Positions 1 to 61,016 of a stretch of DNA of 64,000 bases are shown here, one piece after another. Position 1 is the stretch's first letter. Every line of letters begins with the position of its first letter. Location: the IMG/VR virus record IMGVR_UViG_3300033076_000593, positions 3,719-67,718 of that record. One strand, given 5' to 3'. The stretch comes from a virus (Duplodnaviria; Caudoviricetes). The notes beneath the pieces were generated by a model. It saw only the letters and a list, made by a program, of their open reading frames with translations, ran no database searches and was not told the DNA's origin. A program made the translations under genes and the position numbers.

Positions 1-12
1 AGAGAGAAAATC

Positions 13-73
13 TGAAACGCTCGGAGAGGTATGCTCGTGAGAGGTATCTAGGGGTTCGAGTCCCCACGTTTCG
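13..73 (+). ncRNA. truncated tRNA-like element (acceptor stem plus T-arm, no normal D/anticodon arms)
   Basis: tgaaacg 13-19 pairs with cgtttcg 67-73; gggg-TTCGAGT-cccc T-arm at 51-65; only 31 nt between acceptor 5' strand and T-arm. Confidence 0.4.
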
Positions 74-97
74 CTAACCATTTAAATCAATAAAGCC

Positions 98-205
98 ATG
101 GAGACTAAAATCTTAAGAATCGAGGGGAACTTTGAAGTAATCGGGTTCTTCATCAACGGAGTATTAGTACGCACTACGAAGAGACGTGTATACTCTTGGA
201 ACTAA
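98..205 (+). CDS. small hypothetical protein (35 aa, METKILRIEG...)
   Basis: Read by eye; ATG after A-rich leader, TAA at 203-205; below ORF-track cutoff. Confidence 0.5.
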   Translation: METKILRIEGNFEVIGFFINGVLVRTTKRRVYSWN

Positions 206-797: not shown

Positions 798-892
798 GAG
801 TGGAGTGCATCACAGGGAGGGTAATCATGTTATGTGAGCATGAAGCAACTGTAATGGTGCAGTAGCTGAAAGACGCCTATGCACTTCCGCTT
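798..892 (+). ncRNA. structured intergenic RNA with SAM-I (S-box)-like sequence elements
   Basis: Long outer stem 798-810/879-892, inner hairpins at 826-842 and 845-866; ordered ATC, GGAGGG, ATGAAGC, GCAAC, AATGGTGC, GCTGAAAGAC. Confidence 0.45.
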
Positions 893-920
893 GACCTTAA
901 CCCTTTAAAACCTAGAAGCT

Positions 921-1211
921 ATGAACAAGCAAAATGTGGATGACCAAATCAGAGACTTCATCGAGTACGCTTACTCGGATGAGGCGGATAGACAAAGGAT
1001 GTTTAACGTCCTACAGGACTACATGGACGAGGTATACCAAGAGCCTAGAGAGGTAATGGTATTCACCTTCGATGTGCGAAATGGACAGGACATCTTTTGG
1101 AAGAAAGCGGTCATGGATATGTCTCCGACAGCGGAGTACATTCCTGCCGAGGAATTACACCTGTGGGTGGCTAAGTACCGAGGCTATGGATGGGAGGTAA
1201 AGGTTAACTGA
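921..1211 (+). CDS. early hypothetical protein
   Basis: 96-aa ORF; its TGA lies within the hammerhead core CTGACGA. Confidence 0.75.
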   Translation: MNKQNVDDQIRDFIEYAYSDEADRQRMFNVLQDYMDEVYQEPREVMVFTFDVRNGQDIFWKKAVMDMSPTAEYIPAEELHLWVAKYRGYGWEVKVN

Positions 1212-1274
1212 CGAGTCTTCAGGAGACGAAAGGATTAAATGTGGTATCACAGCCCTACGGGGTTCCTCTTAACC
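1202..1274 (+). ncRNA. type I hammerhead ribozyme
   Basis: Stem I ggttaa 1202-07/ttaacc 1269-74; core CTGACGA 1208-14; stem II gtct/agac; GAAA 1228-31; stem III agga/tcct; cleavage triplet CUC ending at 1268. Confidence 0.85.
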
Positions 1275-1289
1275 ATTAACATTAAACAC

Positions 1290-1634
1290 ATGGAGAGCAT
1301 GAACGTATTTCAACTGAACATCGGGCTTAACAACAACCCGTACGACTTCGAAACAATTACTAACGCACTGAGACACGCCTTCGAAGGGGAGGTAGTGGAG
1401 ACACGGGAACACATCGGAGAGTGGGAGGGTAATCCTGAGCCAACATTGGTCGCTAAGATTGTGACAGCGATGGACTCCGAGAGTGCCGAGATTCTAACGC
1501 AGGCGATGGCCCTCAAGTTCACACAGGACTGCATCGGAATGAAGTTCAACGATGAGGGTGTGCTAGTGTATAGCCCTGATTACAGGGGAGTGGAGAGGTA
1601 CTCATTCAACGCTGAGTATTTCGTAGAACTATGA
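1290..1634 (+). CDS. putative SAM lyase (T3 SAMase-like anti-restriction protein)
   Basis: GEWEGNPEPTLV and KFTQDCIG resemble the T3 SAMase GCYRE..EEKTV and EWEQDCVLV motifs (recalled); ATG 1290 preferred over 1239, which lies inside the ribozyme. Confidence 0.6.
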   Translation: MESMNVFQLNIGLNNNPYDFETITNALRHAFEGEVVETREHIGEWEGNPEPTLVAKIVTAMDSESAEILTQAMALKFTQDCIGMKFNDEGVLVYSPDYRGVERYSFNAEYFVEL

Positions 1635-1891
1635 ACCAAATAAAATTTACAGCCATGAATACCGAAGAGCAATTGAGACACCGACTAGCTATGGTCGAAG
1701 AGGACCTGAGAGTAATCAGGGAGTTTATCTACATTCAGGGATTGTCTAAGACGTTCGAGGAATCAACGCCATTCTCGGATGAGGCTTGGACTCACCTGAA
1801 CAACATCGATATCGCCTGCGACCTGAACAATGGCGAGTCGCTTACATGGAAACGATTTACTAACTTCAATAAAGAAACACGCACGTTATGA
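1631..1891 (+). CDS. early hypothetical protein
   Basis: ATGA-coupled ORF. Confidence 0.7.
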   Translation: MNQIKFTAMNTEEQLRHRLAMVEEDLRVIREFIYIQGLSKTFEESTPFSDEAWTHLNNIDIACDLNNGESLTWKRFTNFNKETRTL

Positions 1892-3153: not shown

Positions 3154-3179
3154 ATTAATAACCATAAATAACTAACGCC

Positions 3180-3560: not shown

Positions 3561-3784
3561 ACGTACTAACAATTAAGAAACGCCCGATGCAGGAACACAT
3601 TGGAGGCAGTCAGGACATCGTATTCCACACCCGTAACAAGGCCCTGTCTAGATTCTTCGAGATGACTGACGAGATGGGCTACGAGGTGGAAGTAAGCTAC
3701 CAAAACAATGCTGTCCTGTATGAATCAGGAGGCAGAGGCCATGACTATAGAATCCAACTTGAACTAACAAACGTATTAGTATGA
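3557..3784 (+). CDS. early hypothetical protein
   Basis: ATGA-coupled ORF. Confidence 0.7.
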   Translation: MNVLTIKKRPMQEHIGGSQDIVFHTRNKALSRFFEMTDEMGYEVEVSYQNNAVLYESGGRGHDYRIQLELTNVLV

Positions 3785-46290: not shown

Positions 46291-48696
46291 TTAATAATAA
46301 AAAGTATCAAATAATTCACCATCTATTTTTGAAGCTTGTTCATTCATTTCTACAAATTTAGGGTATAATGACTTACTTCCCAAAAGTGCATAGCCTCCAG
46401 CCGTAAATAAATCGTATTTTGTCATTTCTCCTTTACCGTCAATGTTTGCAGTTTCTTCTAACATTTCTATGTGATTTTCATAATCACACGCATCTTTTAA
46501 ATATTGTTCCCACACATCAAATATATCCTGTTTCGTAGAATTATTTGATCCGTCAGTTGTAATTCTTCCTGGCAATGGCTTCTTTTCACCCTGCTCATTC
46601 ATATCATAAAGCAAATAACCTCTTAATCCCCAATCAATAAATCTCTCATATAAATGAGTGATATTCATCTCAGGATATAGCATTGCGCCAAAAAATACAC
46701 ATGCCTTAGCTAGGTCATCAGCATACTCATCTCTCCCTACATCTCTTTGTTTATAAGTAAGTACAAATTTATCACTAATCCATTGACTACGCAATTTTAT
46801 TTCATTACCATTATCACCATCTATAGACAAGTCTCTTTTATAAAAAATAGCTCCTGCGTTATAAGATTTCTTTTTCCCACTTACCTCCTGAGATTCGTAT
46901 TTTGCTGGATCGGCTCCCATCACAAATTTATTCATTACATTCCAAGATGGTCTCCAAGCCTCAAGTTCAGTATCCCATTCTTTTAGGTTTCTCTGATCAT
47001 GTCTAGGCACATGAGATATAACAAATTTACCTTCTTCATCTTCTTTTAGTCTAACGGTAGATCCCCTTCCTTCCGTCCACTCTAAATTATACCTTCTCGT
47101 AACGTGAGTTTGAAATGTTAACTGAGTAATTCTTTTTCTAATTCTAAGTACAGGGAAAGATGAATCTTTTGAGGCTGACATAAAACATTCTTTTAGATTA
47201 AAAGGAAAGTTTTGCATCTCTTCGATCAGGCCAGTTTGATCATCATTTGTTTCAAAAGACTTTCTTTTGTTTTGCAAGTATGTTCTAGCTCCAATAGAAA
47301 CTAATCGGCCATCACTGTTTTTTACAGGTCTTTTCGGATCTTCAATAATAGAATTGCCATACTCGTCTATAAAACCATCAAGACCATCATATGCAGGAAA
47401 AAATATTGTGAATAATCCTGAAGCAGTTTGGCCGTTATCGTTTCTTTCATCAAATTTAGATGCCAAAATTAGTCTCTTCATTTGATCACCACCACCCTTC
47501 TCCATCTCACCTAATGTAGATGTTAGGAGGCCAAGACCGTGAATATAAGGACCTTGAGCAAGACACTTCATAACAACCCTCCACCTATCGATGATATTAA
47601 CATTAATACCATTCTTAGGATCAACCTTACCAACCTCATCATGGTGAATGAAATGTAGCTTCTCCATATCGTATGCTCTCTCTCCTGATGGGCGGTGATT
47701 TATCCAACCCTCGTGTGGAGGGAGAGAAGTTGTTCCCACTCCACCTGCTGTTCTGTTTGCAGGTGCAGTAAATTGTATTGCTTCCTTTGGAACAGAAGAT
47801 CCTTCAGTCATCAACTTAAAGAAGAAAGGCATTCTACGCAGACGTTTTGCAATGTGGTCCACAAATACTTGAGTTGAGTGGTAGTCTGACATCGATTGAA
47901 TACCGCCAAAACGCTGGATACCTAAAGTTGCCGTTACATACCAATTTAAAAATCCTGCGCGAGATGTAGCTCCTTCTCTTCGGTGTTTAGGATAAATAAT
48001 CCCATACATTGTTCTTTCACCAGTATCTACTAAAAACTTGCCCTCTTCAATGTAGCATTTAGGATTCATTTCCTTAAACTCGTCTACACCTTTTTTAGTA
48101 TTAAAATATCTAACAAAACTATCTTTACCGTCTGTATAAACAGCTTTATACTTGAATAAACCGTCTGTTGTTTTGTAACCGTACATTACACCAATAAACC
48201 ATCTTCTATCTCTGTCTCTGTATTCAGGAAGACCTTCTTTATTTTTAGCGTTACCTATTGGCCAGAAGTTTAAATATGTATACATACATCCTGGAATGTA
48301 TGTCGGTTTACCATTATTAAAAAAGAAATATCCATTATAGTGTCTCTTAATTTGCTTCTTAATCCACACTATTTCCTTAGAGTAATATGCTGCATTGTTA
48401 AAAAGCTCTTCATCAATATCTTCCAGCTTAACAACTTCCTTTGGTTTTATTTTTTTCTTTTTCCTTATAACCGATTCAATGTCCTTTAAACGAGCTGGCA
48501 TCTCCTGATATTGAAACCTTTGTTTTTCAGGAGGATTACCATATCCATCTATTTTTTTTATTGCCTCTTCGTATGGCAGGTTGTAAAATTGATCTGGAGT
48601 TGGGACTTTTATTTCTATTGGGAACAGGTCCTCATCATCGGTATTTAAAAAAATAGATGTGTCAGATTTTTCGTATTTGTATTTTGTCTCACGCAT
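46291..48696 (-). CDS. terL: terminase large subunit
   Basis: PKHRREGATS Walker A-like, HHDEVGK Walker B, MGADP nuclease motif. Confidence 0.9.
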   Translation of the reverse strand: MRETKYKYEKSDTSIFLNTDDEDLFPIEIKVPTPDQFYNLPYEEAIKKIDGYGNPPEKQRFQYQEMPARLKDIESVIRKKKKIKPKEVVKLEDIDEELFNNAAYYSKEIVWIKKQIKRHYNGYFFFNNGKPTYIPGCMYTYLNFWPIGNAKNKEGLPEYRDRDRRWFIGVMYGYKTTDGLFKYKAVYTDGKDSFVRYFNTKKGVDEFKEMNPKCYIEEGKFLVDTGERTMYGIIYPKHRREGATSRAGFLNWYVTATLGIQRFGGIQSMSDYHSTQVFVDHIAKRLRRMPFFFKLMTEGSSVPKEAIQFTAPANRTAGGVGTTSLPPHEGWINHRPSGERAYDMEKLHFIHHDEVGKVDPKNGINVNIIDRWRVVMKCLAQGPYIHGLGLLTSTLGEMEKGGGDQMKRLILASKFDERNDNGQTASGLFTIFFPAYDGLDGFIDEYGNSIIEDPKRPVKNSDGRLVSIGARTYLQNKRKSFETNDDQTGLIEEMQNFPFNLKECFMSASKDSSFPVLRIRKRITQLTFQTHVTRRYNLEWTEGRGSTVRLKEDEEGKFVISHVPRHDQRNLKEWDTELEAWRPSWNVMNKFVMGADPAKYESQEVSGKKKSYNAGAIFYKRDLSIDGDNGNEIKLRSQWISDKFVLTYKQRDVGRDEYADDLAKACVFFGAMLYPEMNITHLYERFIDWGLRGYLLYDMNEQGEKKPLPGRITTDGSNNSTKQDIFDVWEQYLKDACDYENHIEMLEETANIDGKGEMTKYDLFTAGGYALLGSKSLYPKFVEMNEQASKIDGELFDTFYY

Positions 48697-60294: not shown

Positions 60295-60346
60295 GATGTC
60301 GTTTAAAAAGGTTGACAGCTCGGAAAGACGGCACACCTTCGGGTGT
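60295..60346 (+). ncRNA. GAAAGA-loop plus cUUCGg hairpin motif, copy 1
   Basis: gatgtc..tgacagctcgGAAAGAcggc acacc-TTCG-ggtgt. Confidence 0.5.
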
Positions 60347-60373: not shown

Positions 60374-60706
60374 ATGAGACACGTAGAAAAAGCTTTATTA
60401 AAGTACAATGATGAATGTAAATTAACACATTTCATTCAATTAAAAAATGTAGAAGATGTTAAAGGAGTTGCTCCTATTGTTTCTTTTACAATTCAATCAG
60501 ATCCTATTAGTGAAGTAGGTGTAAATGGAGTTCAAGCATTAGATATGTTAATCTACACTAAATGTTTGTTTCAAAGTTTAAATGAAGCTTTTCCTTGTAG
60601 AGAAAATGCTATTACAATCACTAAACTTGAAGAAGCTATTCATTGGCAAGAAGCAAGAACTAAAGACCGTATAAAGCGTCAAGTTGAAGGTAAGAATGCT
60701 AAATAA
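60374..60706 (+). CDS. tad1: Tad1-like anti-Thoeris signalling-molecule sponge
   Basis: IQ..P..E.GVNG...D.L...FPCRENAITITKLEEAIHW..RTKDRIKRQVEGKNAK matches the recalled Tad1/Acb2-type hairpin motif. Confidence 0.8.
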   Translation: MRHVEKALLKYNDECKLTHFIQLKNVEDVKGVAPIVSFTIQSDPISEVGVNGVQALDMLIYTKCLFQSLNEAFPCRENAITITKLEEAIHWQEARTKDRIKRQVEGKNAK

Positions 60707-60820: not shown

Positions 60821-60920
60821 AGGGGAGTGGCGCAATGGTAGACGCAAGGACAGTCGGCTGAATAAGCTTACTTATAAAGAGGTTTCCGAAAAAGTACAGG
60901 TTCGAATCCTGTCTCCCTTG
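60821..60920 (+). tRNA. tRNA-like gene with an abnormal 50-nt anticodon/variable region; anticodon not assignable
   Basis: Acceptor aggggag/ctccctt; D-arm gcg-caatggtaga-cgc; T-arm acagg-TTCGAAT-cctgt. Confidence 0.65.
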
Positions 60921-60923
60921 CAC

Positions 60924-60996
60924 TTACTGTGATGTCTACTTAATGAGTAATTAGGTAAAACAGTATGACTGCTGGAAAGACAGCCACCTTCGGGTG
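60924..60996 (+). ncRNA. GAAAGA-loop plus cUUCGg hairpin motif, copy 2
   Basis: gatgtc..tgactgctgGAAAGAcagc cacc-TTCG-ggtg. Confidence 0.5.
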
Positions 60997-61016
60997 TAAC
61001 CTTAAAACTAAAAACA

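Follow-up and report, generated by a model that had tools for sequence, protein, structure and literature searches.

Cis-acting hammerhead ribozymes that flank single phage genes have been described before. Perreault et al. (2011; PMC3088659) showed, for three arrays, that multiple hammerheads flanking single prophage genes cleave in vitro and in Escherichia coli; the tandem arrays that they tested were those of Clostridium scindens, Azorhizobium caulinodans and Agrobacterium tumefaciens, and they proposed that such prophage arrays split a polycistronic RNA into single-gene mRNAs. Two other described systems bear on the present case. In the pseudoknot hammerhead, a pseudoknot takes the place of helix II, and there is an additional hairpin upstream (PMC11300833). 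In natural type III hammerheads, the nucleotide (nt) that follows the 3'-product strand of stem I pairs with the 3' nt of loop II (PMC2632901). Here we consider a 64,000-nt stretch of tailed-phage DNA, called the window, which is part of the 67.7-kb IMG/VR virus record IMGVR_UViG_3300033076_000593 (positions 3,719 to 67,718). A preliminary description of the window had placed a type I hammerhead with a branched stem III at positions 1202-1274, across the stop codon of a small gene. We conclude, from comparison of sequences, that 1202-1274 is very probably a functional type I hammerhead that acts by the mechanism set out below, and that it is one member of a large family carried by uncultured tailed phages; the closest cultured relatives of these phages infect Flavobacteriia.

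Two alignments are used throughout, A1 of 69 relatives and A2 of 30 relatives that share the branched stem III. The features of the locus, all on the plus strand, are as follows.

1201: A(-1), 5' of stem I; proposed tertiary partner of U1219, the first nt of loop II
1202-1207: 5' strand of stem I, GGUUAA, pairing with 1269-1274
1208-1214: catalytic core C3-A9, CUGACGA; U4-G5-A6 is the TGA of the upstream gene
1215-1227: stem II hairpin, GUCU, loop UCAGG and AGAC (1215-1218 with 1224-1227); closing pair G10.1-C11.1 is G1215-C1227
1228-1230: core G12, A13 and A14 (GAA), invariant in A1 and A2
1231-1267: three-way junction of stem III, made of P3, UUAAA, P3a and P3b; 32 unique copies
1231-1234 with 1264-1267: P3, AGGA/UCCU, which includes A15.1-U16.1 (A1231-U1267)
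1235-1239: junction strand UUAAA
1240-1251: P3a, UGUG-GUAU-CACA, with loop GUAU
1253-1262: P3b, CCC-UACG-GGG, with loop UACG; the invariant G1252 and U1263 lie on either side
1268-1269: predicted scissile bond between C17 (1268) and U1.1 (1269), placed by hammerhead consensus
1269-1274: 3' strand of stem I, UUAACC, with which the 3' product begins
1275: A(+1), 3' of stem I; proposed tertiary partner of G1223, the last nt of loop II
1269-1289: 21-nt A/U-rich leader without a Shine-Dalgarno site, which stays on the 3' product
921-1211: upstream gene, 96 amino acids (aa); its last codons, AAG GTT AAC TGA, form the stem I 5' strand and the start of the core
1290-1634: downstream gene, 114 aa; homologues align over residues 1-114 from ATG 1290

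In linear order the ribozyme reads GGUUAA, CUGACGA, GUCU-UCAGG-AGAC, GAA, AGGA-UUAAA-(UGUG-GUAU-CACA)-G-(CCC-UACG-GGG)-U-UCCU, the C before the cut, and UUAACC. The window copy has the parts that define a hammerhead, namely the core, A15.1-U16.1, an H17 that is not G, G10.1-C11.1 and three helices. Its topology is that of type I, with stem I open and stems II and III closed, and the family covariance model R1, introduced below, aligns to it end to end. Each element named in the preliminary description lies at the position given there, and the comparative evidence agrees with the type I assignment. The two extra hairpins reported within stem III, 1240-1251 and 1253-1262, are confirmed and recur in 32 unique copies. 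The TGA said to lie inside the catalytic core (1209-1211) does end the open reading frame (ORF) 921-1211, and the positions of the CUC cleavage triplet and of the 21-nt leader to ATG 1290 also stand.

Could such an arrangement arise by chance? A strict descriptor set to the observed stem lengths of 6, 4 and 4 base pairs (bp) finds one site in the window, against an expectation of 0.001 from 1000 first-order Markov random sequences whose transitions were the window's own dinucleotides. Model R1, a covariance model built from A1 with the window sequence left out, gives the window copy a score of 37.2 bits (E 1e-7) and has no second match in the window at E<0.5. On the whole 67.7-kb record R1 gives 50.4 bits (E 2.4e-11), again as the sole match.

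The relatives of the element are found by two routes. Homologues of the upstream protein occur in four IMG/VR contigs, L001-L004 (L numbers denote contigs and fetched loci), which represent three distinct sequences, L002 and L003 being identical here. A hammerhead lies at the same ...K-V-N-TGA end in 4/4 of them, with stem III as a plain hairpin, ACGUGAGGC-UACG-GCCUCAUGU in L001 and ACACGGG-UUCG-CCCGUGU in L002, L003 and L004; stem I has undergone a compensatory change, AGUUAA/UUAACU in L002 against GGUUAA/UUAACC in the window. The second route was a family search of IMG/VR with the 5'-half pattern TTAACTGAYGAGTC N5-9 GACGAAA, which matched at least 119 stretches. In these the descriptor picks out 242 complete type I hammerheads, of which 192 are unique, at one to seven per fetched stretch. 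Does the 5' half predict the 3' half? A stem III, UH and a 6-bp stem I partner follow within 90 nt in 122 of 124 unique 5'-half matches, and when the hexamer 12 nt upstream was taken as the stem I strand, as a control, the count was 0 of 124. The copies cluster on one strand and sit between small genes, nine of them within 4.3 kb of a 51-kb record and five, four, three and one in four other records.

The family so defined has a GGUUAA-type 6-bp stem I, a 13-nt stem II hairpin with loop U-N-A-N-U, A(-1) and A(+1), an upstream stop within the ribozyme or shortly before it, and an 18-24-nt leader. The window copy shows all of these, its sole departure being the last nt of loop II, which is G for U (7 of 193). 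Across the 69 relatives of A1 the core CUGACGA is invariant except at N7. Of the 223 sequences in the unfiltered descriptor set, 175 have C at H17, 38 have A and 10 have U, the lack of G being imposed by the descriptor's filter. By score, the family belongs to no Rfam hammerhead model and is in this respect uncatalogued.

One cultured phage carries a recognizable copy. R1 matches Flavobacterium phage vB_FspP_elemoE_10-3D (MT497078.1, 27095-27152, minus strand) at 32 bits. The downstream gene of the window has a distant homologue there, and the match lies directly after it; stem II of this copy contains two mismatches, and the copy may have decayed. An annotated 35-aa coding sequence, phanotate41 (MT497078.1 27080-27187; L142:781-888), lies on the strand opposite the R1 match, and is probably a spurious gene call over a ribozyme remnant. 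A blastn search of window positions 800-1800 against cultured phages gave no match, and a consensus-like family member used in the same way gave only short weak matches, to Agrobacterium, Pseudoalteromonas and Brevundimonas phages.

The ends of loop II may contact the nts that flank the open stem I. In 179 of the 192 unique copies the stem II region measures 13 nt, and its loop has the consensus U-N-A-N-U, of which the window's UCAGG keeps the U and the A and ends in G. The flanks of stem I are A(-1) in 95% of copies and A(+1) in 90%. Among 193 unique copies, the last nt of loop II and the +1 position are U:A in 168, A:U in 18 and G:A in 7, and the first nt of loop II and the -1 position are U:A in 184 and A:U in 9, in both cases with no exceptions; the nine A:U cases at -1 are essentially one lineage. 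In the window the proposed pairs are U1219 with A1201 and G1223 with A1275. The G:A class is common to the hammerheads that follow homologues of the upstream gene in other phages. Because the variant classes come from few lineages, we take the tertiary covariation as supportive and not decisive.

What weighs against a functional hammerhead? First, the existing models do not recognize it. At gathering score Rfam reports no hammerhead in the window, and in seven related loci no hammerhead family reached threshold. In E-value mode RF00163 (Hammerhead_1), for which the cut-off is 34 bits, gives the window 12.1 bits with a truncated alignment, since the model cannot span a 37-nt stem III; a simple-stem relative reaches 19.9 bits. 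For simple family members the top Rfam model is RAGATH-1 (RF03152), at 26-29 bits against a cut-off of 56.3 and with its upstream hairpin unaligned. The covariance-model search suggested in the preliminary description has a divided outcome, below threshold for the Rfam models and positive, at 37.2-50.4 bits, for the family model. We regard the Rfam misses as limits of its models, not as the absence of a hammerhead. Second, the hammerhead secondary structure, at -15.6 kcal/mol, is not the predicted minimum free energy (MFE) structure, which is at -16.9, and shuffled sequences fold as well as the 73-nt sequence does (z -0.09). Hammerheads rely on tertiary contacts and commonly have a fold other than the MFE, and the folding energies are neutral evidence that lends no support. 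Third, the members of A1 and A2 were chosen by a descriptor that requires pairing in stems I and II and at the base of stem III, so that to call those stems 100% paired is circular; what evidence they offer lies solely in how varied their pair types are. Such variety is seen in A1, where double changes occur in 13 of 16 pairs (5/6 in stem I, 3/4 in stem II and 5/6 in stem III, with G10.1-C11.1 and A15.1-U16.1 never varying), though these counts are not of independent events because many copies are related. To these points may be added that the window falls in the rarer G:A tertiary class (7/193), and that a benefit to the phage is something we infer. The support that is free of circularity consists of the R1 score of the window, the pairing of P3a and P3b described below, and the 5'-half test.

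The geometry of the gene joint is stereotyped. Among the 192 unique copies, the upstream gene stops at a TAA within stem I (GGT TAA) in 63, at a TAG at -8 in 31, at the core TGA, as in the window, in 22 and at a TAA at -9 in 21; across the family the upstream gene ends within stem I or the core or shortly before them. In 155 of the 192 there are 18-24 nt between the cut and the next ATG, and the leader is A-rich with almost no G. From these statistics the core stop codon and the 21-nt leader are traits of the family. Thus the layout pointed out in the preliminary description, a stop within the ribozyme together with a branched stem III, is present, and is better understood as a set of recurrent family features than as a peculiarity of the window copy. 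As for the flanking genes, the 96-aa upstream protein matches no Pfam or PHROG family. The 114-aa downstream protein matches no Pfam family and has weak PHROG matches, to families of unknown function; these searches lend no support to a reading of it as a SAM lyase. The 114-aa protein is widespread in hammerhead-bearing phages, where it is found on either side of hammerheads.

How might the ribozyme act? It would be transcribed within a plus-strand block of small, probably early, genes, would fold once RNA polymerase had passed about position 1275, and would cut itself co-transcriptionally between C1268 and U1269. Stems I and II would be held parallel by the contacts of U1219 and G1223 with A1201 and A1275. 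The upstream message, for gene 921-1211, would keep its TGA and end in stem II and the three-way junction of stem III, with a 2',3'-cyclic phosphate; because the ribozyme is of type I, the whole of it would stay on this 3' end, which would carry two or three stable hairpins. The downstream message, for gene 1290-1634, would begin with a 5'-OH on UUAACC and have a leader of 21 nt, A-rich and unstructured, that lacks a Shine-Dalgarno site. Separation of the products is expected, since stem I is short (6 bp) and A/U-rich. The net result would be the conversion of a polycistronic transcript into single-gene messages whose stability and translation are uncoupled. Cleavage in vivo and its effects on stability and translation are what we infer, and the chemistry of the ends is assumed from that of hammerheads in general; likewise the new ends would be expected to alter decay and uncouple the two genes. 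A ribosome that ends translation at TGA 1209-1211 would presumably unfold stem I and the core, so that cleavage would be needed ahead of the first ribosome or between ribosomes.

One might ask whether the conserved unit is important as DNA and not as RNA. When the window locus is aligned with L001, L002, L004, L084 and L173, it falls into three segments, each with a nearest relative of its own: L001 for the upstream gene through GACGAAA, L084 and L173 (36/38 positions) for stem III, and L002 for the leader with the start of the downstream gene. The joints of this mosaic fall in invariant ribozyme segments, which suggests that hammerhead cassettes also act as recombination joints for the shuffling of genes. 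A stronger proposal is that the cassette of about 50 bp, with stops in two frames, ribozyme and leader, is a portable gene boundary and recombination joint by which phages exchange small early genes, and for which RNA cleavage is secondary or dispensable. The mosaic itself fits this proposal, as do the different genes that follow the same upstream gene in L001, L004 and the window, and the stops in two frames that GGTTAACTGA supplies. But a pure linker would need neither all 13 core nts nor compensatory changes in three helices, and the covarying tertiary pairs are likewise a constraint on RNA that a linker does not need. Given these constraints, recombination is better seen as an effect added to the RNA function than as a replacement for it, and we consider the stronger proposal unlikely.

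The branched stem III raises a different question. A dedicated pattern was run on IMG/VR and metagenomes, and the pooled result is 32 unique complete hammerheads of this sub-type. Their shared architecture is P3 of 4-5 bp, UUAAA, P3a (UG..CA with loop GNAU), G, P3b (CC..GG), U and P3', and the window matches every element. P3 occurs as AGGA/UCCU, AGCAA/UUGCU, AGGUC/GACCU, AGCGA/UCGCU and AGUAC/GUACU, and the loop of P3b is variable and sometimes holds a large insertion; the junction UUAAA, the G before P3b and the U after it are invariant. In A2 double changes occur in 13/24 pairs overall, with 3/5 in P3, 3/5 in P3a and 2/4 in P3b. The paired cells amount to 100% in P3, 98.7% in P3a and 92.2% in P3b, of which P3a and P3b lay outside the search filter. 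G1252 and U1263 may close P3b as a conserved wobble pair. The genes that adjoin branched copies belong to more than 20 clusters or families, and the idea that the sub-type is tied to one gene family is rejected on that ground. Judging by these comparisons, the three-way junction is a conserved sub-type of the family, and our working guess is that it caps the 3' end of the upstream product or gives a protein a handle on it, outside catalysis. A literature search of incomplete coverage turned up no description of such a junction in stem III.

Other elaborations of stem III were seen as well. A second branched type, with two hairpins and without UUAAA, occurs in L053 and L065. In L012:8513, L026:1256 and L060:530, on the minus strand, stem III contains a G+C-rich hairpin followed by a U-tract (GGGGGUG...CAUCCCC UUUUUUUU), which looks like an intrinsic terminator nested in the ribozyme.

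Is cutting by the branched ribozymes switched, and not constitutive? In an allosteric hammerhead of this kind, the junction would bind a protein or small molecule, and so stabilize or disrupt P3 and A15.1-U16.1. The helices covary, but UUAAA, the G and U on either side of P3b and the P3a loop GNAU are conserved; this suggests a specific fold that does more than close stem III, and the stability of P3 could depend on the junction because P3 has only 4-5 bp. Regulated cleavage has also been raised for phage hammerheads by Perreault et al. (PMC3088659). However, the neighbours belong to more than 20 unrelated families, so that no common regulatory logic is visible; the module is very small, with two hairpins of 3-6-bp stems and mostly 3-4-nt loops; it has no Rfam match; most family members do without it; and it comes without a ligand or protein candidate. 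Allosteric control is therefore, in our estimate, improbable. The same low estimate applies to its fullest form, in which the junction would be a protein or metabolite sensor gating two early genes on one message, and the family would be an operon-uncoupling system of Bacteroidota phages that makes single-gene mRNAs with 5'-OH ends and leaders free of Shine-Dalgarno sites.

A further possibility is that the window copy is an inactive relic or a structural element, such as a stabilizer of the 3' end or a signal for a host RNase, that no longer cleaves itself. It is the sole copy in its 67.7-kb record, where relatives have several, it combines the rare G:A tertiary class with an enlarged stem III, and the elemoE_10-3D copy, with its two stem II mismatches, shows what may be decay. 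Yet all catalytic positions of the window copy are intact, the G:A class has been kept after homologues of the upstream gene in other phages, and 32 unique copies of the branched sub-type survive, with compensatory changes. We think a relic very improbable.

It is hardly credible that the downstream gene starts at ATG 1239, inside stem III, so that cleavage within the coding region would control the isoform made: this ATG, the first given by the ORF finder, is in frame with 1290-1634 and is preceded by AGGA (1231-1234) at a 4-nt spacing, but Shine-Dalgarno sites are rarely used by the window phage, the L002 and L003 homologues lack the upstream extension and align from Met 1290, as homologues do generally, the equivalent ATG of L084 is followed, 13 codons on, by a stop, and in L057 and L203 the triplet at that position is ACG. 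A search for relatives with the long form of the protein, from ATG 1239, found none, and a tblastn search of the fetched loci with the short form, from ATG 1290, found many homologues. Trans-cleavage by the 1202-1274 ribozyme of other sites in the window with UAACC and an A-rich leader is rejected on topology, since the closed stem III of a type I hammerhead bars a separate substrate from supplying the H17-N1.1 bond.

With a self-cleaving hammerhead as the preferred reading, the host context may be considered. The large terminase is encoded at 46291-48696 on the minus strand. Its matches are distant; apart from one environmental record with no host named, they belong to phages of Flavobacterium, Cellulophaga, Tenacibaculum and Maribacter. 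The hosts of the family phages are probably Bacteroidota. In Bacteroidota, translation starts largely without Shine-Dalgarno pairing, and unstructured A-rich leaders are favoured. Among the window's ORFs of at least 100 aa, a Shine-Dalgarno-like 4-mer lies upstream of 6 of 54, and the 25 nt before starts have an A content of 45%, against 31% overall. Leaders made by the ribozyme are likely to fit this type of translation.

The same leader is found elsewhere in the window. The sequence (U)UAACC followed by about 18 nt of A-rich sequence and ATG precedes many small plus-strand genes, as at 77-98, 208-232, 897-920, about 2380-2401, 2820-2841, 3158-3179 and 60997-61016, and no hammerhead is found upstream of these by descriptor, R1 or Rfam. 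These leaders may be remnants of lost ribozymes or products of another processing route. In L002 and L004 a second hammerhead (2932-2983) occupies the slot just upstream of the 96-aa gene. The equivalent slot of the window, 786-896, is a 111-nt non-coding stretch that ends at UUAACC 897-902, 24 nt before ATG 921; it has no hammerhead by descriptor, R1 or Rfam, and, although it had been called SAM-I-like in the preliminary description, no Rfam match at E<=1.

Several other structured elements were noted. Window positions 1-100 (L124:300-400) form a structured stretch directly before a UAACC leader and ATG 99, with a long-range GAAACG/CGUUUC helix around two hairpins, one of them T-arm-like (GGGG-UUCGAGU-CCCC). 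A tRNA at the window start, with the GGTTCGAGTCC-like arm at 52-65, is rejected, as ARAGORN and Rfam find none. A motif made of GAUGUC...UGAC, a GAAAGA-capped stem and a cacc-UUCG-ggtg hairpin is present in two copies, 60295-60346 and 60931-60996, which end 27 and 20 nt before ATGs in a geometry that resembles the hammerhead leader. Neither copy has an Rfam match at E<=1. The same GAUGUC...UGAC...GAAAGAC words, without the UUCG hairpin, occur directly before a tRNA gene in L099:12736-12800. This motif could be another processing element. Between copy 2 and a gene that ends at 60706, earlier labelled tad1, lies 60821-60920, an Rfam tRNA match of 35.1 bits with 45 nt in the anticodon and variable region against the model's 17; ARAGORN calls no tRNA there, and the stretch may be an interrupted or tRNA-like element. 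Finally, a DUF805b RNA (RF02914, 38.9 bits) lies on the minus strand of a hammerhead-rich phage contig (L024:250-282).

What does the family add to the picture of phage hammerheads? It is an unusually regular case among them, with hundreds of copies at gene joints, and this regularity leads to testable predictions about message ends, stability and translation; the three-way junction of stem III is a candidate site for regulation. There is a practical side also. Because current Rfam models miss these hammerheads, phage annotation pipelines will overlook the family, and spurious genes may be called over its members, as perhaps on the opposite strand in elemoE_10-3D.

Among known systems, the arrays of Perreault et al. 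(2011) are alike in having several cis hammerheads between short phage-derived genes. They differ from the present family, which is of type I, comes probably from Bacteroidota phages, and has a stereotyped stop and leader geometry and a sub-type with a branched stem III; a stop inside the ribozyme with an 18-24-nt leader and a branched stem III are not mentioned in the passages of PMC3088659 used here. With RF00163, of clan CL00010, the family shares an open stem I, the core of CUGANGA, GAA, A15.1-U16.1 and H17, three helices, and a predicted cut 3' of H17. It departs from that model in scoring 12-20 bits against the 34 required, in its nearly fixed 6-bp stem I of GGUUAA/UUAACC, in making its proposed tertiary contact through nts that flank the open stem I and not through an internal loop, and, in the window copy, in the three-way junction of stem III. 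Like RAGATH-1 (RF03152) it has a short stem I and a long stem III, whereas its stem II is an ordinary 4-bp hairpin and the sequence upstream is coding; in the family sequences upstream of the ribozyme there is no conserved hairpin and no conserved position except A(-1). The mouse hammerhead with a very large loop, which is cited in PMC3088659, is similar in that a core-closing helix carries extra sequence and leaves the core undisturbed, but here the extra sequence is a small conserved junction that recurs in many phages and not a long variable loop. As to the tertiary contact, the two positions that covary here are the same as in the loop 1/loop 2 motif of Dufour et al. (2009; PMC2632901). 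In our case, however, stem I is open and the partner is a flanking single-stranded nt, and the identities are swapped, A(+1)/U(L2) accounting for 168 copies and the viroid-like U:A for 18. That cis hammerheads flank single phage genes has been known since 2011. What seems new here is the definition of the family, its fixed stop and leader geometry, the contact between flank and loop II deduced from covariation, and the conserved three-way junction of stem III.

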